Source of the DNA: Nanobdellati archaeon
GTDB lineage: Archaea; Nanobdellota; Nanobdellia; UBA10117
Length of the DNA: 64,000 bases
Direction of reading: 5' to 3'
NCBI GenBank assembly: GCA_016182015.1
Contig: JACOYC010000012.1
Span: 29,623 to 93,622 of the forward strand
Shown: positions 29,282 through 62,543 of the stretch, in pieces
Position numbering within the stretch: the stretch's first letter is position 1
Layout of the letters: the number at the start of each line of letters is the position of its first letter
The notes under the pieces: generated by a model
The model's input: the letters and a program-made list of their open reading frames with translations, nothing else
Databases searched by the model: none
Told to the model about the DNA's origin: nothing
Position numbers and translations under genes: made by a program

Positions 29282-29331
29282 GTTAGATATACGCATATTT
29301 AACAAATTACTGCGGCGAAAGTTTTATAAGT

Positions 29332-29366: not shown

Positions 29367-29369
29367 ATA

Positions 29370-29552: not shown

Positions 29553-29590
29553 AATGTCACAAAATTTCATAAGATTGAAGAAGCAAAATT

Positions 29591-30400: not shown

Positions 30401-30402
30401 AT

Positions 30403-32460: not shown

Positions 32461-32921
32461 TGAACAAAAAGGGATACTATTATTTTATTGAGCTGGCCGT
32501 AATAGTTATAATAGTTGTGCTGATATTTTCACAGCTTCCAATCTCAAAGCCAGTGCATGCCGGCCAGATTGAAACGGAAAACCTCAGGCAGGTCGGGTTT
32601 GGAACACTTAAGGCGCTGGACGATTCCGGGTTTATATCTAAATATATGAACACCACGCATTTTCAGAATTCTTCGTTCCAGATGCTTCAGCAGGGAATTA
32701 AAGCCCCGCTCCCCAAAACAGTGATCGCAAGGCTTGAATATGTTTATAACTCGACCACATGCTACAACGAATCCGGCGCGTTTGGCGGCTGCGGCGTTAA
32801 TTTTACCGGCGGTTTATCCACAACTATTTATTATACTTTTACAAACAGGACAGAACCAATCACAATTAAGCTTTACCTTGCAAACATATTTGAGACTGCA
32901 GTAAAGGAGGCCAGCGGATGA
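32451..32921 (+). CDS. Pilin-like protein (class III signal peptide)
   Basis: MNKKGYYYFIELAVIVIIVVLIF. Confidence 0.55.
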   Translation: MEMMNKKGYYYFIELAVIVIIVVLIFSQLPISKPVHAGQIETENLRQVGFGTLKALDDSGFISKYMNTTHFQNSSFQMLQQGIKAPLPKTVIARLEYVYNSTTCYNESGAFGGCGVNFTGGLSTTIYYTFTNRTEPITIKLYLANIFETAVKEASG

Positions 32922-38199: not shown

Positions 38200-39741
38200 A
38201 TGATAAAGATTAAAGAACTATTTACATCGTGGCGGGTATGGGTGCTTTTATTCCTGATAATTGCGTCTTACGCGGCGATAAATCCCAGATTTAAAGCCAG
38301 CGGCCTGACAATTTCGCAGGTAGATTTTAACAGCTCTGCTTATCTGAATGGCGTGCCAGATAATGTTCGGATAACGGAATTAAACGGAAAAACCGTTAAT
38401 AATATCCAGGATTTTAATGCTATTGCTGCAGGTATAAAGCCCGGCGACCTTGTTAAAATAACCGCGCTGCAAAAGCCGTTTGCCTTTCGCGCGATTGAAA
38501 AGGACAATCAGACCTATCTTGGCGTAACAGTTGAGCCGCTCCCGACATCGAATCTGAAAAAGGGCCTTGATCTGGTCGGCGGGGTGCGTGTTTTGCTGAA
38601 ACCAAAGGAAGCTGTCTCGCAGGAACAGTTTGCAGATTTGGTTGACATAACGCAGAAGCGCCTTAATGTTTTCGGGCTGAAGGACATAAGCGTGAAGCAG
38701 GTTTCTGATTTGGAGGGGAATAAGTTTCTTTTGGTCGAGATGGCCGGCACGACACAGCAGGAGGCCATTAAGCTGATTTCACAGCAGGGCAAGTTCGAGG
38801 CAAAAATCGGCAATGAGTCTGCATTTGTTGGCTCAGAGATAAAGCAGGTTTCCAGGTCTGCCCAGCAGGGCGCGGGCGTACAGCGATGCGCGCAGGGCGA
38901 GGACTGGACGTGCAGGTTTATGTTCCCGGTTACGATAACGCCTGAAGCAGCAAGGAGGCACGCAGACATAACAAGCAGGCTTGCAGTGACAACAAATGTC
39001 GGCGAGGAAAGCTATCTTGAAAAAAAGCTTGATTTGTATGTTGACGATGAACTGGTTGATTCGCTTTACATATCTTCATCATTGAAGGGGCAGGAGGCAA
39101 CGGAATTTACTATTCAGGGCTCAGGCGGCGGCAGCACAAGAGATGCCGCATTTAACTCCGCGCTTGACAACATGAAGCGCCTGCAGACAATTTTAATTAC
39201 CGGCTCGCTGCCCGTCAAGCTGCAGATAGAGAAGACTGATGTTATTTCACCGGCGCTTGGCTCGGAATTTTTAAGAACTGCGATAATTGCACTTTTCGCC
39301 GCGATCGTGGCTGTTGGCGTGATAATCGCTATCCGCTACAGGAAGCCGCACATTGCAATTCCCATTATGCTGACCAGCCTGTCAGAGGTTTTTATCGTGT
39401 TTGGCGTGGCCGCGCTGATTAAGCAAAATATAGATCTGGCAGCGATTGCCGGCGTGCTTGCCACTGTGGGAACTGGCGTAGACGCGCAGCTAGTTATAAC
39501 TGACGAGGTTCTGGAGCGCGGCTCGCAATTTGCGTACGACTGGAAGGAAAAACTAAAGCGGGCGCTGTTTATTATTATGGGTTCGTATGCAACTGTTGTT
39601 GCGGCGATGATTCCGCTGCTGGCAGTTGGTGCTGGCCTGCTCAAGGGCTTTGCAATCGTCACGATAATCGGCGCCACGATCGGCGTGTTCGTGACAAGGC
39701 CGGCATATGCGAGGATTATTGAGGTCCTTTTAAACAAGTAA
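38200..39741 (+). CDS. secD: Protein-export membrane protein SecD
   Basis: 513 aa, large periplasmic domain, C-terminal TM bundle with GVDAQLVITDE. Confidence 0.8.
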   Translation: MIKIKELFTSWRVWVLLFLIIASYAAINPRFKASGLTISQVDFNSSAYLNGVPDNVRITELNGKTVNNIQDFNAIAAGIKPGDLVKITALQKPFAFRAIEKDNQTYLGVTVEPLPTSNLKKGLDLVGGVRVLLKPKEAVSQEQFADLVDITQKRLNVFGLKDISVKQVSDLEGNKFLLVEMAGTTQQEAIKLISQQGKFEAKIGNESAFVGSEIKQVSRSAQQGAGVQRCAQGEDWTCRFMFPVTITPEAARRHADITSRLAVTTNVGEESYLEKKLDLYVDDELVDSLYISSSLKGQEATEFTIQGSGGGSTRDAAFNSALDNMKRLQTILITGSLPVKLQIEKTDVISPALGSEFLRTAIIALFAAIVAVGVIIAIRYRKPHIAIPIMLTSLSEVFIVFGVAALIKQNIDLAAIAGVLATVGTGVDAQLVITDEVLERGSQFAYDWKEKLKRALFIIMGSYATVVAAMIPLLAVGAGLLKGFAIVTIIGATIGVFVTRPAYARIIEVLLNK

Positions 39742-46939: not shown

Positions 46940-49105
46940 TTGCTAAACCCAATTCATCCGAGAAACAGGAGGCAGAGGAATTTAGAGCGCTTGCAGGCAT
47001 ACGTATCAGGTGCGCTTGCCAGCGGAGTTTCAAAAGGCCGGCTGAAGAAAAGGCTGCTCCAGAGCGGGTGGGGAAGTGATGTTGTTTCAGGCGTTTTGCC
47101 GGATACAAAGCCGAGCTTGCCTGCGGTTATTGCCTTGATAGGGCTTGTCGTATTTTTTACAGGGTTAGCAGTATTTGCCGGCGGGCCAAAACTAACTGGG
47201 TTTTTTGCAGCCGGCGGGAGCGAGTGGGAAGCGCTAACAGAAATTAATGTAAATTCCAGTGTTCAGTCAGTACAGCATCTCGTAGTTTTTGGCAATTTCA
47301 AGCCGCAAAATTGCGCGGATGGCATACTTGTCCAAACTAGCGGCGCACCGATAAATTTCACAACGCAGTTTGAAACCGTGCAGAATAGCCAGTGCGTGAG
47401 CGCTGTAGCGAGTTTTAATAATATAATTTATGATCCAGATTCTAACGGAACGTTACAAGCAACATATAAAATTTATTACGGCAAAATTGTGCAGACTGTG
47501 ACATTTATTCCGCCTACGCCGGAAAATTATCAGATAGTAAATGGCAGCGCCTTTGCAGTCCGCGTGGCGCTAAGCCTGCCAGCAGTCGCGTGGCTCGAGC
47601 TTGATGGCGTAAATAAATCTATGACTGGCAATGGTACTGTGTGGTGGTCTGAGGAGAATCAGACCTTTGGCAACCATACGTTTATGGCACATACACAGCT
47701 TGCCAGCTCTGAGCAAAGGAGCATAACCACGCAGGCATCTGCTCCGGTTCCGGTTCAAGTGCAGTCACCCCCGCCAATTATTAATATAACTCTGGTTACG
47801 CCCACGCCGGCAAACCAATCTACACTGACAAAAAAAGAATTTACAGCTAATGTAACTTTCTCAGATATAGTTTACGGGCCAATGCTAGAACTAATATCTA
47901 ACAGGACCGGTGTGCCACAGTACCAGAATCTTTCGATGACTGGCGGCAATAAATCATGGATGCGCGATGTTACAAACCTGAACAACGGAGTTTATGAATT
48001 TGCAATTTATGCAAATAACACAAAAAGCGAGCCGCGTACAGTCACTGTAAATTATCAGGAGCCGCTGGCACAGCAGACCAAAAGTGCGACAATAACACAG
48101 TTCTCCGCAACAAGCCCAGAGTCGGCAGAGTCAGAAGTCCAGATAACTGCGGTCGTGAAAAATTCCGGGCAGGCAGAGATAAAAACAGTTTCAGGGACAG
48201 CAAGCATTTACAAGGGGACAGAACTTATGGCGGAGGTTTCCCTTGGCTCAGCAGGCAATATAACAATCGGAAATTCAGCGACACTGGCTGGAAAATGGAA
48301 GCCGCAGACCCTTGGAAAATACAAAGCAACTGTTGTTATAAAGTATGATAACGAGGAAGCCAAAGAAGCAGCTTCATTCAGCGTTGGCCTGGCCAATTTG
48401 GAAGCCGCACGGACATCAGTGTTCCAGACGCCCGACGGCAAGGCGGAATTTTTGGTAGAGTTAAACAATAAATGGGTTGAAGCGATACCCGTAGTCGCAG
48501 AATTCAAGATTAAATTTGGAGGCGCGGTAATCGAGACACTGAAATCAGAAGAAATTTCTGTGCCGCCTAACGGCGCCAAGGCAGCGTCTGTTGTCTGGGA
48601 CCCGGCTGGCAGGGATGTCAAGTCGCTTGGCGCAGAAATAACAGTAACATATTCTGGCAAGTCTATTACTGCAGTTATTGAGCCGGCAGCAAAGCCGCCT
48701 GCTGTCCAGCAAGAGGTCAAAGCTGAGGCAGAACAAGGACAGAAGCAGCAGGAGGAGTTAAAAGCAAACAGCGAACAGGAAAAAGCAACTTCCGGCCTGA
48801 CTGGCGCGTTCACCGCGATTAAAGCAGCAGACAAGAAGACTGCGGCGGTTGCGATTGCAGTGATTGCCGGCCTGTTTGGGGCGATTTTTTACGCAGTCAG
48901 GATGGATTTACTGCCTCAACTTGGAAAGCCAAAGAAACCAGCAGGGCCATGGCAGCAAGCTGCAAAGACTGGTGGCCAGCAGGCCGCTGCACAGCCGGGC
49001 AGCAAGGCTGCGTTATACAAGCAGTGGCACGATTATTACGAAGCCTATTACAAAAAATATTACCCGCAGTGGTACGAATATTTAAAGAGGAGCGGGAAGT
49101 TATAA
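46940..49105 (+). CDS. Large cell-surface protein with N- and C-terminal TM anchors and Tyr-rich cytoplasmic tail
   Basis: 721 aa; TM near aa 60 and near the C-terminus; beta-rich repeats (CARDB/Ig-like); tail KQWHDYYEAYYKKYYPQWYEY. Confidence 0.5.
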   Translation: MLNPIHPRNRRQRNLERLQAYVSGALASGVSKGRLKKRLLQSGWGSDVVSGVLPDTKPSLPAVIALIGLVVFFTGLAVFAGGPKLTGFFAAGGSEWEALTEINVNSSVQSVQHLVVFGNFKPQNCADGILVQTSGAPINFTTQFETVQNSQCVSAVASFNNIIYDPDSNGTLQATYKIYYGKIVQTVTFIPPTPENYQIVNGSAFAVRVALSLPAVAWLELDGVNKSMTGNGTVWWSEENQTFGNHTFMAHTQLASSEQRSITTQASAPVPVQVQSPPPIINITLVTPTPANQSTLTKKEFTANVTFSDIVYGPMLELISNRTGVPQYQNLSMTGGNKSWMRDVTNLNNGVYEFAIYANNTKSEPRTVTVNYQEPLAQQTKSATITQFSATSPESAESEVQITAVVKNSGQAEIKTVSGTASIYKGTELMAEVSLGSAGNITIGNSATLAGKWKPQTLGKYKATVVIKYDNEEAKEAASFSVGLANLEAARTSVFQTPDGKAEFLVELNNKWVEAIPVVAEFKIKFGGAVIETLKSEEISVPPNGAKAASVVWDPAGRDVKSLGAEITVTYSGKSITAVIEPAAKPPAVQQEVKAEAEQGQKQQEELKANSEQEKATSGLTGAFTAIKAADKKTAAVAIAVIAGLFGAIFYAVRMDLLPQLGKPKKPAGPWQQAAKTGGQQAAAQPGSKAALYKQWHDYYEAYYKKYYPQWYEYLKRSGKL

Positions 49106-49110: not shown

Positions 49111-50439
49111 CTAAATTAAACCGAGTTGTTTAAGTTCTCCGCGGATTGCCGTAGGATCTTCCCCGCCATGCCAGCTGTACTTTGGCCTGACTTGCATCGG
49201 GTAGATTTTTTCCAGCTTGTCGTCTATCAGGACTGCTGAGCCTTTGTCTGCAGGCAAGTCGTCTATGTAGCGCTGGATGTCAAAAGTAAGATAGGTGGCT
49301 GCAATTTCGTTTAACGCTGATAAGTCTATTTTTGAAGTGACTTTATGTGAGAGCACGATGTCGGCCTGCGTCATCACGTCAGTGTGAATTTTGCCAGGCT
49401 GCTGAGTTGCAAGCACGAGTGAGATTCCGGGTTGCCTGCCTTCGCGCAAAATCTGAATCAGCGCGTTAGACGCCAGGGTTTTTCCGGTTCGCGGTAGGAA
49501 TTCATGCGCTTCATCAATCATCATCCATACAAGCGGCGCTTCCTTTTCAGCGATTACAGATTTTTCTCCAAACAAAAAACCACCCTCGGAAATCAGTTTT
49601 ACTTCCTCTGCCTTTCGTGCGGCCATGCGCTGCGCGAGGATTTTCTTGCTGACTAAACCAATTACAAGCGCCTTCAGCCGCTCGCCATTTTCAACCTGCG
49701 CGTATGCCGAAAGGTCGAGAATTGTTGTTGTGCCGCTTTTTAACAAATCTAAAATTTCTGTGCCAGCCGCTTTGAATATACCCCAGCCGTCTGCGGCTAA
49801 AAACTTGTTTTTTAGAATCTGCTTCTCTTTTTTTTCTGCATCTTTGTCTGTTTCTAAAACGTTAATTAGTTCGCCAATTTCGAAAGTTCCCAGGTTTTCT
49901 TTAGCCTTTGTTACCGTGCGTTCAAGTAATACGCCAGCATCAGATAATAAATCAATTCCAAAAATTTCCGCCCAGTCGTCAGCAGATATTTCTGATGGCC
50001 TGATGGCAAAAGGCAGGTCGCACGGCACGCCTTTTTCTTGGTAAGAATCGAACAGGCCAAACGGAACAAAAATCACTGGGCTCAGGCCTTTGGGAGTCAA
50101 GCCCCATTCTTTTAGGATTTTGTCGTCTTTGTAATTTGGGTATTTCATCGTCCAGAAAATCCCCATCGTGTCAAAAATCAGGAATGATAAATTATTTTTT
50201 ATTTCGTCCGGCAAATCTGCAAGGCCTTCAGCAATTACGGAAATTGTGTAGCTTTTTCCTGTCCCGCGCTTGCCGCTTACTAATATAATATGCGGGCCAG
50301 CCACATCAAGATAAACGGGATTTGACAGCGCCTGAATCCGCTCCATCTGCACATAGTGCTTGCCAAGGAAGATTGTTCCTGCTAAACCTAAACGTTCTTT
50401 CTCCTTCGGGGACCTGCCCGCGATTATTTCGTATGCCAT
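49111..50439 (-). CDS. HerA/FtsK-like P-loop ATPase (DUF87/COG0433)
   Basis: Walker A GKRGTGKSYT, Walker B MMIDEAHEF; 442 aa. Confidence 0.7.
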   Translation of the reverse strand: MAYEIIAGRSPKEKERLGLAGTIFLGKHYVQMERIQALSNPVYLDVAGPHIILVSGKRGTGKSYTISVIAEGLADLPDEIKNNLSFLIFDTMGIFWTMKYPNYKDDKILKEWGLTPKGLSPVIFVPFGLFDSYQEKGVPCDLPFAIRPSEISADDWAEIFGIDLLSDAGVLLERTVTKAKENLGTFEIGELINVLETDKDAEKKEKQILKNKFLAADGWGIFKAAGTEILDLLKSGTTTILDLSAYAQVENGERLKALVIGLVSKKILAQRMAARKAEEVKLISEGGFLFGEKSVIAEKEAPLVWMMIDEAHEFLPRTGKTLASNALIQILREGRQPGISLVLATQQPGKIHTDVMTQADIVLSHKVTSKIDLSALNEIAATYLTFDIQRYIDDLPADKGSAVLIDDKLEKIYPMQVRPKYSWHGGEDPTAIRGELKQLGLI

Positions 50440-50535: not shown

Positions 50536-50719
50536 GCCGACGTCGCTTAACCCGGTATAGCGCTGGTCTCGAAAACCAGTCCCGCAAGGGATTGCAGGTT
50601 CAAATCTAAGATCCAAGGGGGCGCTGCCCCCTTAGTTCTTAGTCACTTCTGATCCCCCGGTCGCATCGCTACGCGATGCAACTAAGGATTAGCAGTGAAG
50701 GAAAATCCTGCCGTCGGCG
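50536..50719 (+). tRNA. tRNA-Ser (anticodon CGA) with about 101-nt intron at non-canonical T-loop position 60/61
   Basis: Acceptor GCCGACG/CGTCGGC, discriminator G, D-arm GCT-TAACCCGGTAT-AGC, anticodon stem CTGGT/ACCAG with loop CTCGAAA, long variable arm TCCCGCAAGGGA, T-stem GCAGG and T-loop TTCAAAT, then an insert before CCTGC. Confidence 0.75.
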
Positions 50720-50814
50720 CTCAATTTTTTCATAATATAGAAATAAGGATTTTTTGATTTCAACCACAAACTATTTAAATGCCCGCAAGTATGTTTAACT
50801 TGAGGTAAATTAAA

Positions 50815-51285
50815 ATGGCCGCATGGTTAAGTGAAAAATCAGTAACAGTGTTAGCTGTATTAGTCGCCCTGGTAGCTGTAGGAGCACCTTTGCTTACAGG
50901 GAATACGGGAAGGTTGGCAATAGCTACGGGTACCAGTTCTCTGCCATTTGACTTTTCTGTAACAAATGTAAATGTGCCTGAGCCACAGTACTCGTATTAC
51001 CCTGTCAGGGGCATTACTGCTACTTTCAGGAATACCGGGCCAATAAGCTTTGGCTTTGTAAATTACAAGATGGAAATATCCAGTTCCAAGGGCCATTATT
51101 ACAGAGACGGTGTTGGAACTGTCACGCTGCCTGCCCGCGGTTCGGCGTCAGCAGAGATGCCAGCGGTGCATGACTTGCCAGCCGGCGAGTATAATGTCAA
51201 GGTCACAATAGATTACCTTGGCGAGCACAGCGAGACAGATGAATCAAATAACGCGTTCACAACAAAGCTCGTGATAAAAGGCTGA
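50815..51285 (+). CDS. Secreted single-domain CARDB-like beta-sandwich protein (paralog family)
   Basis: Signal peptide; C-terminal motif EHSETDESNNAF shared across the family. Confidence 0.6.
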   Translation: MAAWLSEKSVTVLAVLVALVAVGAPLLTGNTGRLAIATGTSSLPFDFSVTNVNVPEPQYSYYPVRGITATFRNTGPISFGFVNYKMEISSSKGHYYRDGVGTVTLPARGSASAEMPAVHDLPAGEYNVKVTIDYLGEHSETDESNNAFTTKLVIKG

Positions 51286-51354
51286 TTTTTTCCATTTTTT
51301 GTTTTTTTAAGTCCGATAGAAAGCCCCAGATAGTTTTATAAACAAGTATTTCAA

Positions 51355-51828
51355 GTGCTGAATGTAATGGCCACATACGAGAAATATATTGCAGCCTTAG
51401 CGGCAGTATTTTTGCTGGCCAACATCAGCCATAATTTTTTGGCCGCAGGCAGCGCAACAGTAAAAACGCCGGTTGATTTTTCTATTCAGGCGTTGTATTA
51501 CCCGAAAATAATGCTGCCGAACACGCATATCACTACGAGGGCAATTTTATCTAACAAGGGCACGCAGTCCGCTTCTTTTGTAACGTATGATTACCGTATT
51601 TTTGACGAGCGCGGCGCGGAAGTATACAGGAGTTCCGATGGGTCATACATACAGGTTTTGCCGGCGAGCACGGAGGTTTCAAGATATCTGAGCACGGTGA
51701 TGTTTCAGAAGGCTGGCAAGTACAGAGTTCGCGTGACTATTGATTCTGAAAAGCGGTTTGATGAGACAGATGAGACTAATAATATATATGAAACAACAAT
51801 AACAGTTACAGATTCTTTGCCGAAGTGA
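51355..51828 (+). CDS. Secreted CARDB-like protein (paralog)
   Basis: MATYEKYIAALAAVFLL...; FDETDETNNIYETTITV. Confidence 0.6.
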   Translation: MLNVMATYEKYIAALAAVFLLANISHNFLAAGSATVKTPVDFSIQALYYPKIMLPNTHITTRAILSNKGTQSASFVTYDYRIFDERGAEVYRSSDGSYIQVLPASTEVSRYLSTVMFQKAGKYRVRVTIDSEKRFDETDETNNIYETTITVTDSLPK

Positions 51829-54800
51829 TAGAAATGGAAAAACATAAAAAAACCAAAATAGCCGCTTTGTTTCTGATAGTTCCGATAATTTTCCTCTGGC
51901 CGCTGTCCATTGCAACGTTACAAGAGTCAGATCTATCTTTTTTTGCGAAGGGCAAGGATGATTCTGGTGTAGGTTCATCCTCGTCCGGGTCCTCTGGACC
52001 GTCAGCACCATCTTCCCCAGCCATAGCTTCTGAGCCATCAGCACCGGCCTCGCCGTTAGAATCAGCATCTTCTGATACCAGTGAGGCAGAAAGCAGTTCC
52101 GCATCCTCGGGGCAGGCAGAATCTTCAGGCGGGAAGGCAGGCAAGGAAAAATCAGAATCTGGCGGTGAAGCGCAGTTAACACCTTCCGAGGAAAAAACAG
52201 AAGCCAAGGAAGAAAAAGTTAAAGAGGAAAAAGTAAAAGAGACCAAGGAAGAATCAGCAGAAGCAAAGGAGGAGAAAAAATCCGAAGCGCGCGAGAGCGC
52301 AGTCATGGGGCCGGCCGCAAATGAAATTGCAACTGTCAACGAAGTTGCTGCCGAAGTTGTGGCGACAGACCCCGGTGTTACACCTGACTCTCCAGTTTAC
52401 AAATTAGAAATAGCTGCAGAACAGATACAGGACTCTGCAGTGAATAATCCTGAAAAGAAGGCGGAAGTAGCCGCCGAACGCGCAGAGGAGCGGCTGGCCG
52501 AAGCAAAAGCAGTTGAGGAAAAAGGAGACTACAAATCAACAGGGGTTGCGCTGGAAAAAGCGCAGGAGAGCGTAGAGGCAATCTCGCGGGCCGTGGATGC
52601 AGTTCCAAAGAGCGAGGAAAAAATTGAGGCTGCAAATAAAATAGAAAAACACGCGCTTCAGCTCGAGGACTATGCTGAGAGCGTAAAAGATAAGCTAGAG
52701 GAAAAAGTAAAATCCGGCGATGCGCCGCCCGAAGCGGTTGATGCTTTGGACAGTGTAAAAGAGCTTGAGGCCGCAGCAGTCGAGGCGCAATACAGAGCCG
52801 AAAAAACAAAAGATAAAATTGCAGACAAAATAAGGGAAGAGCAGGGCGTTACAAAACAGGAGGCAGAGCTGATCGTCGAGCAGAAATCCGATGAGTCCGG
52901 GCTTACAGAACTGCAAAAGGAAAAAGTTGCGGATGATTTTGAAAAAATCCGCGAGAAAATAGAAAAACTTGACGAGCGCGCGGGCGCAGTTGAGGAAGCC
53001 AAAAATGAGAAGCCTGCCGAAAAAACAAAGGAAGCGATTTCTGATAATTTTGATGATTTGAAAACTGTGCTGAAGGATACAAAAGACTCGCTGAAGGATG
53101 TTGCTGAGGAGCGCATCCCTGAAATCGAGCAGCAGTTTGCGGAAATAGATTCGAAAGTAAAGAGTGCTGAGGAAAAGAGCAGCAAGGATGCTGGCGAGAA
53201 GCCTGCTGAAGAGGTTAGCGCTCAGCTGGCCAGCGATTTCTCCGAGATGAAAAATAAAGTTGGCATAGCAGAGGAAGAAATAACAAAAGCTGCAGATGCA
53301 GAAATTTCAGTGCAGTTTGGCGAAGTTAACGATAAAATAGAAAAAGCAGAAAAGAAGGCGAAAGAGACTGCAGAGGAAGATGAGAAGGCGCAGATAGAGC
53401 AACAGTTTTCAAAATTAAAAGACGAAGTCGATAAAGCCGAGAAAAAAATCAAAGGTAAAGAAACGGCCCTGCAGGAAGAAGCAGCGATAGCTGTTGAAAC
53501 AAATTTTAATGAGATTAACAATAAAATTGAGACTGTAGAGGCCAACGTTGAAGAAATAAAATCTGCAGACGCTGAGGTTGCATCTGAATTTGCAGGCCTT
53601 AAAGACGCGGTTGAGCAGGCCGAAGGTGCAGTTGCTGAAGCGGCCAAGCCGGAAGACAGGGGCAAGGTTGCATCTGAATTTGAAAAAATAAAAAAAGAAG
53701 TTGAAGATGCCGAGAAAAAAACTGGCGAGGCAGCCGGAGAAAAAACATCTGAGGAAATAAAATCTGAAATCGCAAAAGAGTTCGATGATGTAAGCAAAAA
53801 GATAGATGAAGCAGAGCACAGCATAAAAGCGGCCAAGTCGGCATAAAAGCGGCCAAGCCGGCAACGGCTGAAATTGCAAAGGAATTTGACGAGCTGAAAG
53901 GCAAGGCTGATAAGGCTGAGGAAAAAGTAAAAACCGAGAAAGCGGCAGACGTAGAGCTTAAAAAAGAATTCGAAGAGCTGGTGATAAAGTCATCAGAAGC
54001 TGAAGAAAAAATAAATGAAAAAAAATTAGAAAAGGCGGAAATTAAAAATAATTTTGATAAAGCTAAGGATGAAATAATTAATATTGAACGCAGTGTCCAG
54101 GCTGAACTTGTACCGGAAACTGTGGCTGTGCCGGAGGTTCCGGATGTTGTTGCTGACCTAATCGAGGAAGCAAAAACGCAGCTGCAGGTATCAGAAAGTG
54201 CTTTTGAAACCAAGCAGGCAGGCAAGGCCTACAAAGAGCTCAAGGGCGCAGAATTTATGGCAAACAGCGCAGAAAAAGTTTTGGATTCGTTGTCCGGTGA
54301 TTTTGAAATAAAGGAAAAAGCAGAGAAGATAGAAAAGTCCGCGGAGAAAGCCGACAGGGATGCGGAAAAAGAGGTGAAGGAGCGCGTTGATGATATAAAA
54401 GAGAAACTTAGCAAGGCCGAGGAAAAGGCGGTAGAAGTGGCAGAGCCGAAAGACAAGGCAGACCTAGCCAAGGAATTTAAAGAAACAAGGGACAGGCTTG
54501 ACGGAGCCGAGAAAAAAATCAAAGATGATGTCCGCAACAAGCCGGCCGAAGAGGCTGGCCCAGAAGTCGCGGCCGAGCTTGCAGATGTAAAAGATAAAAT
54601 TGACAAAGTGGAAGAAAAAGCCAGAGAAAAAATCAAAGGCAAGGAAATTGATGACGTAGTGCAGGAGCTGGCCAGCGCAAAAGACAAGGCAGACAAGGCG
54701 GAAGACAAGATAATAGAAAAGGCGGCCAGAGCTGAAGAAAATAAGGACAAGGTTGACAAGGCGTTTAAAGAAATTGAGACGCCGCTGTCTGTGACTGACG

Positions 54801-56476
54801 TTTTGAACGAGCTTAGCAAGGTAAAAAGAGACGCTGACGAAGACAAGGCCAAGAGAATAAAAGACGCAGAGGATTTTTCAGTTGATTATGAAGCTGCAAA
54901 GGAAAAGCTGGACAAAGAACATCCGGGCAAAAAAGATGCCTTTGAGAAAGAGTACGCGCAGTCCAAGAAAGTCCTTGAGATAAATGAGAAGCTTGATGCG
55001 GATAATGCAAAAGAACTGAAGGAGCTGCGGGAAGACCTGAAGGCAGAGACAAAGGACGAAGCAAAAGCAGAGAAAGAGGCAGAAAAGCTGCTTAAGAAAA
55101 GCGCTGCAGATGAGTTCCGCAAGGCATACGGCGAAGAGTTTTTGCCGCCAGGCATCAGCCTGAAACACGAGGGCGACAAGGAAAATGGCAAGCTGGATGA
55201 AAAGTTCGAAGCAAAAGAGGCAGGCCATGTTAAAGGGTACAAATACAAGGATGATGCTGCTACCGGCTATGAATATGAGTTTACTTCTGACGGATATAAA
55301 TTCAAGACGCCGCGCGGCAATGAATATGAAGTGAAGTACGACTCGGATTTTGTGCCGCCAGATGGATATGAAACCGGAAATGAAATGCATAAGTTCAAAG
55401 CCAAAACCCTGAAGGGCAAGGCAGAATATATATTTGTGCCGACTGGATACAAGGTAAAAACAAAAAGCAAGGAAAAGGCAGGCGCCTACGATGTTGGTGA
55501 ATATGAAGTGAACGGCGGCGGCAAGATAAAAATAAGGCCGACTGGTTACTCACTTGAGAAAGACGGAAAAGTGAAAGCAGAAAAAGAGAAGGCAGTAAAG
55601 GAAAAGAAGGAGAAAGTAAAGAGCGAGAAGAAAGAGAAAGATGAGAAAGCGAAGGAGGAGCGCGTAGCAAAGGAGAAGAAAATTAAACTAGAGAAGGAAG
55701 CCAAAATTAAGGCGGTAAAAGAAAAATCAGAAACTGCAAAAGAAAAGAAAGAGCGCGAAGTGAAGGAGAAAAAAGTAAAAGGAGAAAATGAAAAGAGGGA
55801 TAAGAAGCTAAAAGAGGAAAAAATAAAGAAAGAGAAGGAAGATAAAGACAAGAAAGAAAAAGAAGTGAAAGAAAAGAAGGCCAAGAAAGAAAAAGAAGAA
55901 AAAAAGGTGAAGGAAGAAAAGATAGTCAAGTACAAATATAATCCAAAATCAAAGAAATATGTTTCGGCAGGCGGGCGCGTGTTTGTGCCGCCGCAGGGGG
56001 CAAGCCTGCATGAGCAAGCCAAGTACCTGCCAGATAAAAACGTATATGAACTTAAGGTAAACGGCGATGTTTGGACTTACGATCCTGTTACAGATGCATG
56101 GACATCGAAAAGCGGCGAGGCTGATCAGGACGTTACGCCGGCGATTTTAGTTGATTTCGGAGTTGACGATGTTAGCAGGCCGGGCGTGACTTCGCCGCAG
56201 GCCGCGACAGCTTCTGTTAAGAACATTGGCACTGCCACAGCTACAGCAGTACATTACAAGTACGAAATAGTCGCAGCTAACGGCGCAGTAAAGTATTCAA
56301 CAACCGGCGATATAACTGCGGTGCCATCTGACAGCTCAGTGCTTGTAAGGACTGCAACAGATTCTGGACTAAGCCCCGGGGCATACAAGCTTAAGTTCAC
56401 AGTGGACTCTGACGGCAAGTTTGACGAAGGCGACGAAAACGATAACGTCTTTGAGAAGGAGCTGATTGTGGCCTAA
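51825..56476 (+). pseudogene. Giant E/K-rich coiled-coil surface protein (about 1540 aa if repaired) with C-terminal CARDB-like domain; interrupted by 20-bp tandem duplication at 53822-53861
   Basis: ORFs 51825-53846 and 53981-56476 are in different frames. Removing one 20-nt repeat copy restores a continuous frame with matching repeat style (EIAKEFDELKGKADKAEEKV). N-terminal TM, S/P/A-rich linker, then EK repeats, and the tail ends FDEGDENDNVFEKELIVA. Confidence 0.7.
53822..53861. repeat. 20-bp tandem direct duplication cataaaagcggccaag(t/c)cgg x2
   Basis: Two adjacent copies with one mismatch; 20 nt is not a multiple of 3, so the duplication shifts the frame. Confidence 0.85.
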
Positions 56477-56512
56477 GAAAAGGTTAAATAGTGCGCAGCG
56501 GTAGTTGGTTAA

Positions 56513-56930
56513 TTGAAAATGGCCACATACGAAAAAATATCGGCAGTGCTGGCAATATTTTTAGTAATAGGAATTGCCGGCTACTCATTTTACGGCAACT
56601 CAACGCAGGGCGCGGCCGCAGCAGGCTATTACGAGTTTTCCATCAAAAGTCTTGACTTCCCGGAGAAGATAACTAAGGATAATCCGTTCAAGGCGAACGC
56701 GACCTTTGTGAATTCCGGCACGCTGACCGCCTCGTTTGTTGCATACGACTATGAAATTTTTGATTCCCGCGGGGCGTATGCATACCGCAGCAGAATTGCA
56801 GAAGCTGCAGCCAGCAGTCTACTTAACAAATGGCACTTACTTTGTCAGGCTGACATTAGATTCAGAAAATCATTTTAGCGAGGATAATAAATCAGATAAT
56901 AAAATTGTGACAAACATACGAGTATACTAG
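56513..56930 (+). pseudogene. CARDB-like paralog disrupted by frameshift/deletion
   Basis: N-terminus MKMATYEKISAVLAIFLVIGIAG matches the family; the C-terminal family motif (TYFVRLTLDSENHFSEDNKSDN) lies in another frame (ORF 56736-56930). Confidence 0.65.
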
Positions 56931-56950
56931 GAGTATACTGGCAGTATACT
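56921..56950. promoter_or_regulatory. Three copies of palindromic AGTATACT at 11-bp phasing
   Basis: Copies at 56921, 56932 and 56943. Confidence 0.4.
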
Positions 56951-57071
56951 TGAGATGATACGAATTGTTTAGCTGTGCGCTTTCTAAAGAGTAAAAAGCT
57001 TTTTAAATAACACAATTCATGTTAAACATAACGCGGAACAAGTTCCGCGGATTTGCTCACGGAGTTCGCAA

Positions 57072-57515
57072 ATGGCCACAAATGAAGGTTTAGTTACAAT
57101 TATAGCCGTGCTTGCAGTCCTTGTGTCTGTCGGGCTTGGTTCTGTTTCTGAAGGCGTGTCGGGGAGCGCGGTTGCAGATATTTCAGAGCTCTCTGTTAAA
57201 TCTATTTCTATTCAGCCGCAGGCATATGCCGGCCAGACGATACGCGGGACAGCAATTTTTTCCAACACCGGAGGTTTGAGCGCGAGCTTTGTCCAATACA
57301 AATACGAATGGATAAATGAATATGGGAATGCACTTTTTACAACAAGCGATAAACTCGCGTTGATTGCAGGCCGCGATACCGATGTTACTCTGAAGGATGT
57401 TGAAGGCCTGCCGGCAGGCAAGTATGCAGTCCGCATCACAGTTGACCATCTGAAGGAATTTTCTGAACTTGATGAAACTAATAATGTTTATGAAACAAGT
57501 GTGACGGTATTATGA
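57072..57515 (+). CDS. Secreted CARDB-like protein (paralog)
   Basis: Signal peptide; FSELDETNNVYETSVTVL. Confidence 0.6.
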   Translation: MATNEGLVTIIAVLAVLVSVGLGSVSEGVSGSAVADISELSVKSISIQPQAYAGQTIRGTAIFSNTGGLSASFVQYKYEWINEYGNALFTTSDKLALIAGRDTDVTLKDVEGLPAGKYAVRITVDHLKEFSELDETNNVYETSVTVL

Positions 57516-57949
57516 AACAGGCAACAATTGCATGGATCGCGATAGCTGTTTTCCTTGGCGCGTTTGGCGGGCCATTGCTGACCGGCCAGCACAGCGCCAG
57601 CACAGCAGTAAGCCCGCTTGACTTTTCGGTTAAATCCGTAACTTACTCAGACACAAAGGCAGGCCTGCCGTTTACAGCAACAATTGTTTTTTCAAACTCA
57701 GGTTCGATAAGCGCGAGCTATGCAAAATATAATTATGAAGTCTTTGGCGAATTTGGAAATTTGTTTTACTCAAATACTGATTATGTGCAAGTCCTGCCAG
57801 TCGGCGGGGACGCAACAGTAACAACGCCAGCTTATGTTACGATGCCAGCAGGCAAGTACACAGTTCGCGTAACGATAGACAGCGACAAAAATTTTGACGA
57901 ACTGGATGAGACAAATAATAAGTGGGAAGAAAGCTTGGTGATTAAATAG
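57512..57949 (+). CDS. Secreted CARDB-like protein (paralog)
   Basis: Signal peptide; FDELDETNNKWEESLVIK; 4-nt overlap with the upstream gene. Confidence 0.6.
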   Translation: MKQATIAWIAIAVFLGAFGGPLLTGQHSASTAVSPLDFSVKSVTYSDTKAGLPFTATIVFSNSGSISASYAKYNYEVFGEFGNLFYSNTDYVQVLPVGGDATVTTPAYVTMPAGKYTVRVTIDSDKNFDELDETNNKWEESLVIK

Positions 57950-58033
57950 GCCTTTAGTTTTTTATTTAGTTTTTTTGGCACGTTAGTATGTAACCGCAAG
58001 CTATATAAATAGTCTTTTACATATAAATATAAA

Positions 58034-58474
58034 ATGGCCACACATGTCGATAGTAAAGCTTTAGCAGGAATAGCCGTATTTATCGCGCTTGCAGCGTTTG
58101 CCAGCCCATATTTGACTGGTAATGTAGCAGCAACAGTTGACAATCTGGATTTGGTTGCTTCTGATGTGACTGTGCCAGCCAGAATACTGGCCAGCGTTGA
58201 GTTCCAGCCGACATTCAAAGTCAGTAATGTGGGCACTGCCGGCATAAGCTCGACAATTTACAAATACGAAATCCTGCGTGGCACGCAACTTTTTACGAGT
58301 TCGACAGAAACATTTACTATAATTGGCGGCCGAGAGCAAATAGTGGAACTGCCGAGGAATATATACCTGCCAGCAGGCACGTACACGCTCAGAGTAACCG
58401 TTGACCCGTACAACTATTATGCTGAAGTAAGCGAGGCTAATAATGTCGCACAGACTGAGTTTACAGTTGTTTAA
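58034..58474 (+). CDS. Secreted CARDB-like protein (paralog)
   Basis: Signal peptide; AEVSEANNVAQTEFTVV. Confidence 0.6.
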   Translation: MATHVDSKALAGIAVFIALAAFASPYLTGNVAATVDNLDLVASDVTVPARILASVEFQPTFKVSNVGTAGISSTIYKYEILRGTQLFTSSTETFTIIGGREQIVELPRNIYLPAGTYTLRVTVDPYNYYAEVSEANNVAQTEFTVV

Positions 58475-58475
58475 A

Positions 58476-59231
58476 ATGACAAATGTAAAAGCCCTAGCGA
58501 TAATAGTTTCGCTGCTGGTTTTTACAATTGCTGTTGCGCCGAATATAACTGGTTTTGTCACTGCAGTCGATTCTGGCGGATGCAGGGGCGTGCCAACTTT
58601 GACATTAGATCCCAACCCAGTGCAGGCCGGCAAGATAGCAACTGCCAGGGTGTCTGGCCTGATGGACTGCAATGGCAAGACTGTTGATTTGAAGCTGGAC
58701 AGCTGCTTTGGTGCAAAGCTTGGCTCGTTCAGATGCGTTGATAAATTTTGCACTTCCACTTTTCCGGTAAAACTTAGCGCGCCAAAGGACTATTTGATTG
58801 CAGCCTGCATTGACAAGAACGGCAACGGATATTTGTATGATGCAGGCGAACGCGCAGCATCGCTTTTCAAGGTGCGCTCGATGCCGGATGTTTATGTAAA
58901 CAAGATTTCATTCCTGCCAGCAGACCCGAGGAGGGGCCAGCAGGTTATTCCAGTAATCAGCGTCGGAAACCGCGGCTCAGCTTCCGCATATTTCTTTAAC
59001 CTGCGCGTGACCCTTTCCCAAAAGGACAGCAATAACAGGGATGCAACAATTACCTCGTGGGAAAACAATGTTCAGGTTGATGCGAACAGCGTGAAGGACT
59101 TCAGGGCGCCAGGCTACTCTTTGAGTCCGGGCGATTATAAGGTTACGGTAGAGCTGGACAGGCTGGACTACATAGTTGAGCTGAACGAGCGCGATAATAA
59201 TGCAAATGCCAAGCTGAAGGTTTATCCATAA
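58476..59231 (+). CDS. Secreted two-domain protein with C-terminal CARDB-like domain
   Basis: MTNVKALAIIVSLLVF signal peptide; Cys-containing N-domain; C-terminal VELNERDNNANAKLKVYP. Confidence 0.55.
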   Translation: MTNVKALAIIVSLLVFTIAVAPNITGFVTAVDSGGCRGVPTLTLDPNPVQAGKIATARVSGLMDCNGKTVDLKLDSCFGAKLGSFRCVDKFCTSTFPVKLSAPKDYLIAACIDKNGNGYLYDAGERAASLFKVRSMPDVYVNKISFLPADPRRGQQVIPVISVGNRGSASAYFFNLRVTLSQKDSNNRDATITSWENNVQVDANSVKDFRAPGYSLSPGDYKVTVELDRLDYIVELNERDNNANAKLKVYP

Positions 59232-59620: not shown

Positions 59621-59989
59621 TTATTCGGCCTCAATAAGCTTGATTTTCAGAAATTTCTCTAGCTTCCTTGCCAGCCCCAAATCCAAGCGCTTGCCTTGTT
59701 CTGCAGCTTGAATGACTGGCAGTTTTTCGCTTAATCTGTTCGCGAGTTCTTCCTGCTTTAAACCCATTTGCTGCCTTGCCGAGGAAATTATTTTTCCGAA
59801 ATTTTCGGTTACTGTTTCGCCGGATTCCGGCGCAATGTATTGCAGGACTGGCTGCCTTGCCGCAGGCCTTGGCTGTTCGATAATCTTGCCCGTGGAAGAA
59901 CAGGGAGCGCAGACATTTAGAGCTACGCTGTCAACACTTGCTTTCACGGTTGCGCGGGCAGAGCCGCAGATTTCGCAATCAATGGGCAT
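59621..59989 (-). CDS. MBF1-like transcription factor (N-terminal Zn-ribbon plus C-terminal XRE-type HTH)
   Basis: CEICG...CAPC zinc ribbon; HTH region ARQQMGLKQEELANRLSEK. Confidence 0.7.
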   Translation of the reverse strand: MPIDCEICGSARATVKASVDSVALNVCAPCSSTGKIIEQPRPAARQPVLQYIAPESGETVTENFGKIISSARQQMGLKQEELANRLSEKLPVIQAAEQGKRLDLGLARKLEKFLKIKLIEAE

Positions 59990-60033
59990 TACCTAATTAT
60001 TATAAACCCCAAAGATATAAAGTTTTCTATAAC

Positions 60034-60057
60034 AAAAACTAGCTACGGCTAGTTTTT
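60034..60057. promoter_or_regulatory. Perfect 10-bp inverted repeat AAAAACTAGC-tacg-GCTAGTTTTT in divergent MBF1/NMD3 promoter region
   Basis: Seen directly; 27 nt upstream of the NMD3 start. Confidence 0.4.
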
Positions 60058-60083
60058 GAATGCTCAATCACAGGTGATTTCAC

Positions 60084-60761
60084 ATGGGACTCAAATCCAA
60101 ATTCTGTGCAAGGTGCGGAAAAGAGACCGGCAAGCTAGCTGATGGTATCTGTGTCGAGTGCAGGCTTGGCGGGTCAGATATAATAGTGCCGAAGCGCGCG
60201 GTGCTTGTGGCCTGCAAGTCGTGCGGTTCTGTGGACTTTGAGGGCATCTGGATAAAAAGCGACGAGCCAGACGAAACACATTTTGAGAACAATCTGATTA
60301 AAAAAATACGTGTTCCGGAAAACACAGAACTCGAATCCGTGAAAATCTCTGAGCGCAATAACATATTTGGGAAAATTGCAGTCACATTTTCGTTTGCAGG
60401 CCGGCAGTTTACACAAATATTTCCAGTTCAGTTCGAGAAAAAACTGGTCGTGTGCCCGGAGTGCTCGATGCACAGGCGCAAGGAATATGTTGCGACAATC
60501 CAGCTGCGCGACAAGCCAGAGAATGTCAGAAAAATGATGGAAAATATGCGGGGATTTGAGACAAATATTCTGAAGACCGAGGGGCAGAAGCGCGGTATTG
60601 ATATTTATTTCACAAACAAGGAAGCGGCAAAGCATGCCGCGGCAGAGATGAGAAAAGAATTTAATCTGTTCATGAAGCAGTCCGGGCAGGCCTACTCATG
60701 GGATAAGCAGAAGAACAGGCCGAAGTATAAGCTCGTAATTCTGCTGAGGGCGAGGGAATAG
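60084..60761 (+). CDS. NMD3-family protein (ribosomal large-subunit export/biogenesis factor homolog)
   Basis: Two CxxC pairs at the N-terminus (CARCG...CVEC, CKSCG), a further CPEC, and the basic tail typical of archaeal Nmd3. Confidence 0.6.
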   Translation: MGLKSKFCARCGKETGKLADGICVECRLGGSDIIVPKRAVLVACKSCGSVDFEGIWIKSDEPDETHFENNLIKKIRVPENTELESVKISERNNIFGKIAVTFSFAGRQFTQIFPVQFEKKLVVCPECSMHRRKEYVATIQLRDKPENVRKMMENMRGFETNILKTEGQKRGIDIYFTNKEAAKHAAAEMRKEFNLFMKQSGQAYSWDKQKNRPKYKLVILLRARE

Positions 60762-60793
60762 TTTTTAAATCGTGTTTAACAGCTTAATATAAA

Positions 60794-61168
60794 ATGTTCA
60801 AACCACGCCCGCGTTTTCAGCAGAACAGAAGGCCTAATCGGGGCCAGCAAAACCAATCGGGCGAGCAGCAGGTATTCAGGGTAAGGCTGCCGCGAGGGAA
60901 AGAAGTTTTGGGAATTGTTGAAATGCGCCTCGGATTTGGCCACTCCCGAGTCAGATGTGTGGATGGCAAAACCAGAATCTGCCGCGTTCCCGGCGCATTG
61001 AAACGCCAGTTGTGGGTCAGGCCAGATTCTATTGTGCTGATCGAGCCTTGGGAGTATGAGGGCGACAAAAAGGGAGATATAATTTACAAATACACAGACA
61101 ACCAGGCCAGGTGGCTGAAAGAGCAGGGTCATTTGAAGGTGCTGTTTGAGCAGAAGGAATTTGCATAA
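60794..61168 (+). CDS. eif1a: Translation initiation factor aIF-1A
   Basis: S1/OB-fold VLGIVEMRLGFGHSRVRCVDGKTRICRVPGALKRQLWVRPDSIVLIEPWEY. Confidence 0.85.
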   Translation: MFKPRPRFQQNRRPNRGQQNQSGEQQVFRVRLPRGKEVLGIVEMRLGFGHSRVRCVDGKTRICRVPGALKRQLWVRPDSIVLIEPWEYEGDKKGDIIYKYTDNQARWLKEQGHLKVLFEQKEFA

Positions 61169-61210
61169 CAATATAGAAAGATTTAAAAATCCGTTTATAC
61201 TTATTTTTGT

Positions 61211-61990
61211 ATGACACATTCAGATTTAGAGCGTAGAATTAGGGCTGGCGAAACATTAGCGCCAGACGAAGTGTTAGATGTTTGGGATGATGTAAAATGC
61301 GGACTTAGAAAGCAGTTTCCACACGGGACTAGACCTAATAATTATAGTTTTTTAAGAGATAGGCAGCATCGGCGTTGGATACTTCAAAAGTTTATTTCAA
61401 ATTGTTTGCGCGATAAAGGCAGACACCCCGAACAAAATGACTACAAAGATGCAAGACTGAATGGTTTGTTAGGTCATTATTTAAACAGTTCATCGTATGA
61501 TGCGGCAGTGTTTGCAGGTTTTACAAATCCAGAAAATGTTGTGTATTATGATGTAGTTTTAGATAAGATGCCATGGCTTGCCATTCGTTTGCCTCAGAAG
61601 TTCTGGCTGGTTCGAGAAACAAGGACAAAAGGAACAAAATGGGCGGTAAGGGTTTTGCGAAAGCTTGGCAAAACGCCGGAAGAAATTGAATGGCGCGACA
61701 TAGAGCAGTTAATTGGCCATGTACGCGTAACGCAAAAAACACGCTTGACGTTACCTGAGTTATTAGATGAAGCAGGCTATAAAATAAGCCCTGCAAAAAT
61801 GCAAAAAGCGCCAAATAGTTACTGGCGCGAGCCGGAAAACAGGAGAGCGTATATTTTGCACAGAAAAGAGGAGCTAGGCAGACCACCACGCAGCAGGGAA
61901 GTTCCGTCAAGCCTGCTTAGGGCTGCTGGCAGTTATGAATGTTTGCTTGCAGAGGCAGGCTTATTAACATCAGAAGCGAAAAGTGAGTAA
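61211..61990 (+). CDS. Hypothetical protein in the position usually held by Rio kinase
   Basis: 259 aa; no Rio motifs (P-loop STGKEA, HxDLSEYN, IDxxQ absent); atypical composition. Confidence 0.4.
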   Translation: MTHSDLERRIRAGETLAPDEVLDVWDDVKCGLRKQFPHGTRPNNYSFLRDRQHRRWILQKFISNCLRDKGRHPEQNDYKDARLNGLLGHYLNSSSYDAAVFAGFTNPENVVYYDVVLDKMPWLAIRLPQKFWLVRETRTKGTKWAVRVLRKLGKTPEEIEWRDIEQLIGHVRVTQKTRLTLPELLDEAGYKISPAKMQKAPNSYWREPENRRAYILHRKEELGRPPRSREVPSSLLRAAGSYECLLAEAGLLTSEAKSE

Positions 61991-62543
61991 TATGCAATTC
62001 ATTGATGAGATTCTGGTTCCGAGGACAAGGGTTGCTGTAGTTATAGGCCCAAAAGGCGCGACAAAGGTTACCCTGGAACAGCTTGGCAACGTAAAAATTA
62101 CTGTGAAAAATAATTTGGTAGAAGTTGAAGGCACTGACGCTTTGGAAGTAATGATTGCTAAGAATGTGGTTGATGCGGTCGGCCGCGGATTTTCGCCAGA
62201 GTCTGCAAAACTTTTATTCAAAGAAGATTATGCCTACGAAAAACTCTCGCTGCCGGACTACGGACACAAAAAACAAAGCCACCAGCAGCGCGTCCGTGGC
62301 GTAGTGATTGGAGCAAACGGCAAAGCAAAAAATCTGATCGCGCGGGAGACCGGCGCTGAAATTGTGGTGCAGGGCAAGACTGTTGCGATCCTAGGAAAGT
62401 ACGATGCTGTCGAAAAGGCAAGGCAGGCCGTTGAGATGCTGCTTACGGGAAGACGGCATGCCACGGTTTATAGGTTCCTGAGCGGAGGCAAGGGTTCCGC
62501 GAGGCCCAGCCAAGAAGAGCTCGGCTTGGGTTTAGAGCGGTAA
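61983..62543 (+). CDS. KH-domain RNA-binding protein (Dim2/Krr1-like, COG1094)
   Basis: Two KH-like segments VVIGPKGATKVTLEQ and VVIGANGKAKNLIARETGAEI. Confidence 0.75.
   Translation: MSNMQFIDEILVPRTRVAVVIGPKGATKVTLEQLGNVKITVKNNLVEVEGTDALEVMIAKNVVDAVGRGFSPESAKLLFKEDYAYEKLSLPDYGHKKQSHQQRVRGVVIGANGKAKNLIARETGAEIVVQGKTVAILGKYDAVEKARQAVEMLLTGRRHATVYRFLSGGKGSARPSQEELGLGLER

Follow-up and report, generated by a model that had tools for sequence, protein, structure and literature searches.

Gene content and layout of the array

The window analysed here is a stretch of 64,000 nucleotides from the Nanobdellati archaeon assembly GCA_016182015.1 (contig JACOYC010000012.1, positions 29,623 to 93,622 of the forward strand); coordinates are those of the window unless they carry the handle of a related contig (e.g., L002). 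It harbours an array of seven paralogous genes, here called par1 to par7, whose products combine an N-terminal export segment with one CARDB domain, and which surround the gene of a giant fibre protein closed by the same kind of domain (Table 1). A sequence-only reading of this DNA had located seven such genes, and open reading frames (ORFs) are present on the plus strand at every one of these places; its size range of about 145-157 amino acids (aa) per protein applies to six copies but fails for the gene at 58476 (par7), which is larger due to an extra domain with six cysteines.

Table 1. Array genes and associated features in the window (HMM, hidden Markov model; AF2, AlphaFold2; TRF, tandem repeat call)
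Feature	Position	Strand	Length (aa)	CARDB score (bits)	Description
par1	50815-51285	+	156	24.9	N-terminal hydrophobic segment (...APLLTG...) and single CARDB; family HMM 1.8e-44; orthologues L002:9444-9905 and L003:387-863
par2	51367-51828 (ORF opens at GTG 51355)	+	153	41.1	Single CARDB
Fibre gene, 5' part	51825-53846	+			Probable start ATG 51834 (MEKHKKTK...); signal peptide, Ser-rich linker, DUF5667 region, start of the stalk
20-bp tandem duplication	53821-53863	+			GCATAAAAGCGGCCAAG[T/C]CG, 2.2 copies (TRF); shifts the fibre reading frame
Fibre gene, 3' part	53981-56476 (ORF; gene part from 53861)	+		33.1	Remaining helical stalk, Tyr/Gly/Thr-rich beta region, Lys/Glu-rich spacer, C-terminal CARDB module
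par3	56519-56930	+			Two-frame remnant, pseudogene in this assembly; both halves match the family HMM
par4	57072-57515	+	147	28.4	Single CARDB; stop overlaps the par5 start (ATGA)
par5	57512-57949	+	145	33.7	Single CARDB; copy with AF2 model
par6	58034-58474	+	146	28.4	Single CARDB
par7	58476-59231	+	251	34.0	Export segment (...APNITG...), six-Cys all-beta N-domain, CARDB

Two genes of this set are damaged in this assembly. The 5' part of the fibre gene ends at a TAA that arises from the 20-bp duplication, and the in-silico removal of one 20-bp unit yielded a fibre ORF of 1,543 aa that is 90% identical to an intact orthologue of 1,529 aa. The Logan contig L001, which matches the window at 99.97-100% identity, terminates exactly at this duplication, so the split may be either a population variant or an assembly problem. 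The gene at 56513 (par3) had been called a pseudogene, and in this assembly it is one, broken by a 41-bp deletion at ~56802-56806 that is flanked by AGCT microhomology; in the same Logan contig it is intact (150 aa, L001:2668-3120). According to their orthologues (P0002, which begins MATYEK, and P0003), the true starts of par2 and par3 are ATG 51367 and ATG 56519 (MATYEK...), and the upstream GTG/TTG codons are not used. The start of par7 lies 1 nt past the par6 stop.

The shared start context that had been proposed for several copies was recovered in part: AAATGGCCRC lies upstream of four of the seven paralog genes (six matches in the window against 0.62 expected), but GAGGTAAAT was found upstream of par1 only. 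The M-A-T N-terminus (codons ATG GCC AC) is kept across paralogs that are only ~30% identical and across distant lineages (50815, 51367, 56519, 57072, 58034; P0048-P0155), and could relate to the translation start context, to N-terminal processing or to topology. A promoter-like box, AACCACAAACTATTTAAA, lies upstream of par1 and is conserved in the window and L003. By inspection, TATA-like boxes precede par1, par2, par3, par4, and par6, with none before the fibre gene, par5, and par7, a pattern that suggests five putative transcription units (par1; par2-fibre; par3; par4-par5; par6-par7).

Family assignment and fold

All six intact copies score above the gathering cut-off of the Pfam CARDB family (PF07705, E-set clan; 22.7 bits), with 24.9-41.1 bits, and the C-terminal module of the fibre (~56147-56470) does so as well, at residues 736-826 of an 831-aa ORF; in par7 the match covers residues 148-255 of a 262-aa ORF. 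The paralogs share 22-37% pairwise identity, with invariant columns at N-x-G, G-x-Y, D, E, E, and N. As noticed in the sequence-only reading, a conserved acidic motif, D..E-x-(D/N)-E-x-N-N, precedes a short last strand, and it aligns with the same motif in the solved CARDB domains 3IDU and 2KL6. In a six-frame census of the window with an HMM of the family, only ORFs of the cluster matched (1e-44 to 1e-52 for the small copies, 2e-23 to 4.4e-23 for the fibre C-terminus, and 1.5e-6 for par7), and the expression D-x(4-8)-E-x-[DNSE]-E-x-[ND]-N was found in 7 out of 375 ORF fragments, every one of them inside the cluster. As the matches of both searches are confined to the cluster, the paralog family is real, far beyond chance.

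The fold was assessed on par5, the sole copy that could be modelled reliably, with an AF2 model built from ten family sequences. The mean predicted local distance difference test score (pLDDT) was 80.7, residues 41-145 formed a seven-strand beta-sandwich with pLDDT 87-95, and the first 31 residues had no confident model. A Foldseek search of this model against the PDB retrieved at the top the CARDB domain of PF1109 (3idu and 2kl6; E 5e-6 to 2e-5, TM-score to the target 0.76-0.79), while that of MA_4588 (2l0d) stood at rank 8, the three CARDB entries together spanning E 5e-6 to 1e-4 and target TM-scores of 0.70-0.79. Below the CARDB entries the list held generic immunoglobulin (Ig)-like folds, i.e., RhoGDI, the Wzt carbohydrate-binding domain, TapA, and one archaeal pilus. 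The same three entries (3IDU, 2KL6, 2L0D) were retrieved when PDB sequences were searched with a profile. By cut-off, by signature, and by the fold of par5, the paralogs and the fibre C-terminus belong to CARDB; the single-domain architecture, the beta-sandwich, and the shared module at the end of the giant protein had all been correctly anticipated.

The conserved acidic D..E-x-D-E-x-N-N loop is the CARDB signature itself and probably has a structural or metal-binding role; the latter is suggested by the title of entry 3IDU, deposited 'in complex with di-metal ions', and a literature search on metal binding by CARDB and on DUF5667 returned nothing useful. The additional N-domain of par7 has six cysteines that are invariant in four orthologues, and its single-sequence AF2 model (pLDDT 55) was too poor for use.

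Distribution and evolution of the array

The array is flanked by archaeal housekeeping genes (SMC/ScpA/ScpB, SecD/F, a Hel308-type helicase, NMD3, eIF-1A, and a KH protein), and the database matches are named as metagenome-assembled genomes (MAGs) of a 'DPANN group archaeon'. Only two species representatives were found among GTDB genomes with the par7 alignment, namely JACQKZ01, a 'Nanobdellati archaeon' from Californian groundwater, and JAHFKX01, a 'Candidatus Woesearchaeota archaeon' from New Zealand groundwater. The organism is a groundwater DPANN archaeon of the Woesearchaeota type. A profile search of 1.84 billion representative proteins returned 6,063 CARDB relatives, mostly giant multi-repeat proteins, and among the top 150 relatives only 18 were small (136-156 aa) clusters of the M-A-T...T-G-A-x-A type; thus, the domain is common while the subfamily of small proteins is narrow.

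The seven copies fall into seven separate orthogroups, in each of which the sister genome JACQKZ01 contributes a 1:1 orthologue (82-97% aa identity), and all copies but par2 also have a 1:1 orthologue in JAHFKX01 (~50-64% identity). The gene order is identical in the window and in both of these genomes. The duplications therefore predate these lineages. Pairwise Nei-Gojobori estimates of the ratio of nonsynonymous to synonymous substitution rates (dN/dS; window vs. JACQKZ01) were 0.07-0.20 for every copy and elevated for none, which points to purifying selection on all of them. Judged from these comparisons, the paralog set is old and under purifying selection.

Turnover in copy number, including losses, was seen only at greater distances. 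In deeper relatives, this chromosomal neighbourhood holds between 5 and at least 9 genes of the family, with a HerA-like ATPase (81% identical to that of the window) on the left, and with an MBF1-like helix-turn-helix (HTH) protein, NMD3, and eIF-1A on the right in the window, L003, L005, and L006 (in L010 and L013 the right flank cannot be seen). L010 and L013 have lineage-specific tandem duplicates, and both the CARDB tip of the fibre and the Cys-rich domain were gained or lost among distant genomes. The gene at the par6 position carries the same Cys-rich N-domain as par7 in L003 (2382-3125) and in L013 (11559-12308); in trees, the L003 copy groups with par6 and the L013 copy not clearly so. 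Given these Cys-rich genes, par6 and par7 look like an old tandem pair whose Cys-rich domain would have been lost from par6 in the lineage of the window. Foreign genes also occur in or beside the arrays: a tetratricopeptide repeat (TPR) gene between par3 and par4 (L002:15605-16453, minus strand), a ~7-kb block that consists of ~15 small ORFans and lies immediately ahead of the par6 orthologue (L006:1-7113; without informative matches in a PHROGs scan), a MazE/PIN toxin-antitoxin pair (L010:7117-7760), and a tyrosine integrase adjoining a two-gene array (L011:286-1095).

The synonymous divergence (dS) between the window (57072-58474 and 59621-62543, compared with L005) and the sister genome is 0.13-0.27 for par3-par6 as compared to 0.47-1.4 in flanking housekeeping genes, and NMD3 (60084-60761) is 57% identical to the protein of the sister genome, while the adjoining eIF-1A and KH protein reach 95-97%. 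Taken together, the low dS of the array and the divergent NMD3 suggest a mosaic that may have arisen by recombination between lineages.

The sequence-only reading had proposed a locally expanding family that might serve as a variable adhesin repertoire. In its strongest form, this would be a rapidly expanding set of interchangeable adhesin variants, kept for host range or immune evasion and comparable to the hypervariable VARTIG modules of Ig domains; the turnover at deep divergence and the foreign inserts described above speak for it, as do the low identity of paralogs between lineages (~35-60%, vs. 81% for the flanking HerA-like ATPase) and the two disrupted genes in this assembly. However, orthologues are kept 1:1 and in order across three genomes, no copy has an elevated dN/dS, the inner copies have a dS below that of the flanking housekeeping genes, and recent duplicates are lacking in the window, where the closest pair is 37% identical. 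On the basis of dN/dS and the orthogroup trees, we reject diversifying selection and recent expansion, and a repertoire of this kind is distinctly unlikely. The terms 'expanding' and 'variable' lack support among strains and species and hold only in the sense of a slow birth-and-death evolution that becomes apparent at deeper divergence.

Export segment and mode of assembly

An N-terminal export segment (a signal peptide in the sequence-only reading) was seen throughout: the small paralogs usually begin with an almost uncharged M-A-T-x(3-6), followed by a hydrophobic stretch of 19-22 residues and then often by P-x-[LI]-T-G, and an A-x-A-like site lies only 2-8 residues ahead of the first beta-strand (DFSV). 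The fibre protein has a classical signal peptide (a K-rich n-region and a ~15-residue h-region, then S-I-A). When the window was compared with the Woesearchaeota MAG, the N-terminal 30 residues were more conserved than the domain in par1 (0.90 vs. 0.50), par6 (0.70 vs. 0.55), and par4 (0.62 vs. 0.52), and less so in par3 (0.38 vs. 0.57). An N-terminus that is as conserved as the domain or more fits a retained anchor, and the small paralogs may be either retained signal anchors or substrates of signal peptidase I, as either fits the segment.

Genes for SecD and SecF are located within the same window. The extracytoplasmic region of SecD (38200-39741, plus strand) has sub-threshold CARDB-like (E 0.0035) and PDZ-like (E 0.0058) matches. 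The gene at 46940-49105 (plus strand) encodes a 721-aa membrane protein in which a transmembrane segment is followed by G-P-K-L-T-G, the same P-x-L-T-G as in the paralogs. Its further features are an Ig-like/CARDB region (25.4 bits), a second transmembrane segment at the C-terminus, and a Tyr-rich tail; the HMM of the paralog family did not match it.

A locus resembling type IV pili (T4P) or archaella lies at 22493-33622 and comprises a T2SSE ATPase with PilB3_C (22493-24247), two T2SSF genes (T2SSF at 29591-31569), and five or more pilin-like genes whose class III signals are canonical, some of these genes with weak matches to Arch_flagellin, DUF7266, and DUF7289. With such a locus in the window, the small CARDB proteins could themselves be type IV pilin-like subunits, in which a prepilin peptidase would trim the leader, the hydrophobic helix would form the filament core decorated by CARDB, and T2SSE/T2SSF would drive assembly. 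Their size (~145 aa) and the N-terminal hydrophobic helix directly before the beta-sandwich are like those of archaeal pilins, K-[AS] stands just ahead of the hydrophobic stretch in three copies and E-G in one, conservation is higher at the N-terminus than in the domain of par1 and of par6, and Foldseek listed the type IV pilus of Pyrobaculum calidifontis (8fk7), albeit weakly (E 4.4e-4, TM-score to the query 0.47, root-mean-square deviation 10). Nevertheless, the genuine pilin-like genes of the window carry the class III signature (RKALTPIIAVILLL, RNAITPIIAVIMLL, RKTITPIIAVILTM, KRGVSSLIGFLIL) and none of the CARDB copies does: only three to four of the seven resemble such a signal, the feature is not conserved, and many family members have neither K/R nor G/A/S at the required positions (MATNNTLVAGIAV, MATTEQISATVAV, MAANNQSVVLIAV). 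Moreover, Pilin_N, Class_III-signal, and Arch_flagellin gave no match at E<=1 in Pfam, NCBIfam listed no pilin N-terminal or archaellin profile at E<=0.1, the T-G-A-x-A stretch is conserved after the hydrophobic segment as in substrates of signal peptidase I, and the T2SSE/T2SSF genes lie ~20 kb off with pilins of their own, none of them flanking the arrays of L002, L003, L005, L010, L011, and L013. With true class III pilins ~20 kb away in the same window, and with the signal, the pilin profiles, and the T2SSE/T2SSF linkage each tested and found wanting, we reject the identity as type IV pilins, which is very improbable.

Least probable of all is a donor-strand-complemented fibre of the kind formed by Sulfolobus threads (Saci_0406), archaeal bundling pili, or TasA/TapA, in which subunits exported by Sec and processed by signal peptidase I insert an N-terminal strand into their neighbour: Sec-type signals, small beta-sandwiches, Foldseek matches to TapA (8aif, 6hqc; E 2-6e-4), and the fact that thread subunits are also signal peptidase I substrates encoded beside a paralogous putative cap (PMC9715654) would favour it, but such threads need an N-terminal tail and an open groove (PMC9715654), and we reject it here given that the ~2-8 residues between the A-x-A-like site and the first strand leave no donor-strand tail, that the seven-strand sandwich is complete and closed in the AF2 monomer model of par5, that the best structural matches are monomeric CARDB domains instead of pilins, and that seven conserved, distinct paralogs stand against the usual single major subunit with a cap.

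The fibre protein and its link to par2

The central ~740 residues of the fibre are rich in E/K/A with a lag-7 periodicity, and this acidic, heptad-periodic composition suggests a coiled-coil-like stalk. Ahead of the stalk, the intact orthologue (L002:10468-15057, 90% identical), which has CARDB at its end, matches DUF5667 (PF18915; gathering cut-off 27 bits) with 50.1 bits (E 3.9e-13), and the fibre of L010, which is devoid of CARDB, does so with 63.3 bits (E 3e-17). For the truncated N-terminal fibre ORF of the window, the Pfam scan listed no DUF5667 match, though the motif TPDSPVYKLEIAAEQ... is present. The dN/dS of the fibre gene vs. JACQKZ01 is 0.14.

The stop codon of par2 overlaps or abuts the start of the fibre gene, and a par2-type gene is located directly upstream of a DUF5667 fibre gene in all three fibre-bearing lineages (window, L002, and L010), while both genes are jointly absent from the arrays of L003 and L013. 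This co-occurrence, small but consistent over five lineages, ties par2, and only par2, to the fibre. It had been proposed that the paralogs are partner or cap subunits of the fibre; adjacency and joint absence make this plausible for par2, but the remaining six copies are also kept where no fibre gene adjoins them, and the proposal does not extend to them.

Left flank of the array

The gene of the HerA/DUF87/Zot-like P-loop ATPase mentioned above (49111-50439, minus strand; 442 aa in the window) is the left-hand neighbour of the array in the window, in L010, and in L013/L014, thus in three lineages. We considered it as a functional partner and rejected it, as it is far more conserved than the array (the 81% identity refers to L013) and is separated from it by different genes each time; for these reasons it is read as part of the conserved chromosomal backbone.

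Between this gene and par1, a tRNA-Ser(CGA) gene (50536-50720, plus strand) has its T-loop/T-stem split by a non-canonical intron of 101 nt (~50607-50707), with a boundary that is ambiguous within a repeated AATC. ARAGORN and Rfam detected no tRNA anywhere on the uncut 64 kb, and after in-silico removal of the 101 nt ARAGORN called a canonical 84-nt tRNA-Ser(cga). The window is homologous to the sister genome from just past the 3' end of the tRNA onwards (window 50724 vs. L002:9354); upstream of this point the window has the tRNA and the HerA-like ATPase, and L002 has eight minus-strand genes, mostly without Pfam matches and two with weak HTH matches. The synteny thus breaks at the tRNA gene, which is possibly an integration site.

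Proposed role of the locus

The reading that we favour, and consider probable though far from settled, is that the array encodes Sec-exported CARDB proteins displayed at the surface, seven non-redundant components of the envelope or of adhesion beside a long fibre. The Sec pathway would insert or export the small proteins, which would then be exposed at the outer side of the membrane. There, they would either stay tethered through an N-terminal helix that is not cleaved, or be freed by signal peptidase I past T-G-A-x-A. Because conservation extends to all seven non-redundant copies, these probably work jointly as different parts of a single surface assembly (a coat or an adhesion module), and it is unlikely that they are interchangeable variants. 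Of these, par2 would be co-expressed with the fibre protein and probably work with it, and the distal CARDB tip of the fibre could dock to like domains.

Several observations weigh against this proposal of a surface-displayed assembly. The n-region often has no positive charge, which is atypical for Sec signals, and N-glycosylation sequons are few (0-1 in six copies, 4 in par3), unlike in many archaeal surface proteins. The codon bias of the array exceeds that of other genes only slightly (effective number of codons, Nc, 47.8 vs. 52.2) and gives no hint of very high expression. Both the fibre gene and par3 are disrupted in this assembly, hence either the cell can do without the complete set or the assembly contains errors at both points. 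Finally, the searched literature contained no experimentally established function of a CARDB domain, and 'adhesion' is an annotation only.

A more specific version, speculative and on the whole unlikely, is that the locus encodes a previously undescribed surface structure of Woesearchaeota, in which several distinct CARDB proteins anchored by their N-terminal helices would form a heteromeric coat or docking platform, with the DUF5667/coiled-coil fibre of ~1,500 aa, tipped by a matching CARDB and co-expressed with par2, plugging into it or reaching out from it. If true, these episymbionts could use the platform and the fibre as an apparatus for attachment to their hosts. A life attached to host cells is assumed for DPANN archaea, and the molecules of their envelope and of host contact are mostly unknown. 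In this context, syntenic and selectively kept minimal Ig-domain proteins together with a long fibre provide a small, concrete list of candidates for the envelope and host contact, which lend themselves readily to expression, to modelling as complexes, and to searches in proteomes.

Comparison with known systems

The closest solved relatives are the CARDB domains of PF1109 from Pyrococcus furiosus (3IDU, 2KL6) and MA_4588 from Methanosarcina acetivorans (2L0D), which share the HMM family, the fold, and the C-terminal E-x-(N/D)-E-x-N-N with the paralogs of the window at only 17-21% identity. Those domains were excised from other proteins, whereas here the mature protein consists of nothing but the domain, in seven paralogs whose genes are clustered.

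Archaeal type IV pilins and Sulfolobus threads (PMC9715654) are alike in being small exported proteins with an N-terminal hydrophobic segment and an Ig-like sandwich, encoded by clustered paralogs, but the proteins of the window have neither the class III signal of the former nor the donor-strand tail of the latter. Published annotations of archaea list CARDB as a module of cell surfaces or of adhesion, also for the DPANN organism Mia14 ('ARMAN', PMC5498576), whose surface-layer proteins use it as a presumed adhesion module; in Mia14 these are large, strain-specific fusions with PKD or beta-propeller domains, in contrast to the minimal single domains of a conserved array seen here.

The VARTIG loci of Thermococcales (PMC8416519) resemble the array in that a large secreted Ig/CARDB protein is flanked by smaller genes, some of them with Ig domains, and in the proposed action at the cell surface. 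VARTIG modules are hypervariable between close strains and their large protein has multiple Ig domains, while the array of the window has a dN/dS of 0.07-0.20 and a coiled-coil fibre with a single terminal CARDB. We tested for hypervariability of the VARTIG type and rejected it, as orthologues are 82-97% identical and in the same order.

The nearest counterpart in architecture is arCOG02532, the single-CARDB proteins that represent the most frequent CARDB architecture in archaea (PMC8416519): like the paralogs of the window, to which we matched them by description, they have one CARDB and an export signal (PMC8416519). PMC8416519 makes no mention of a conserved array of several paralogs with a DUF5667 fibre, nor was one found elsewhere in the searched literature, and members of the M-A-T/T-G-A-x-A subfamily were detected in no more than a narrow group of groundwater DPANN/Woesearchaeota assemblies. 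Rather than a new mechanism, the locus thus adds further members and a gene arrangement to a recognised, uncharacterised class of single-CARDB proteins.

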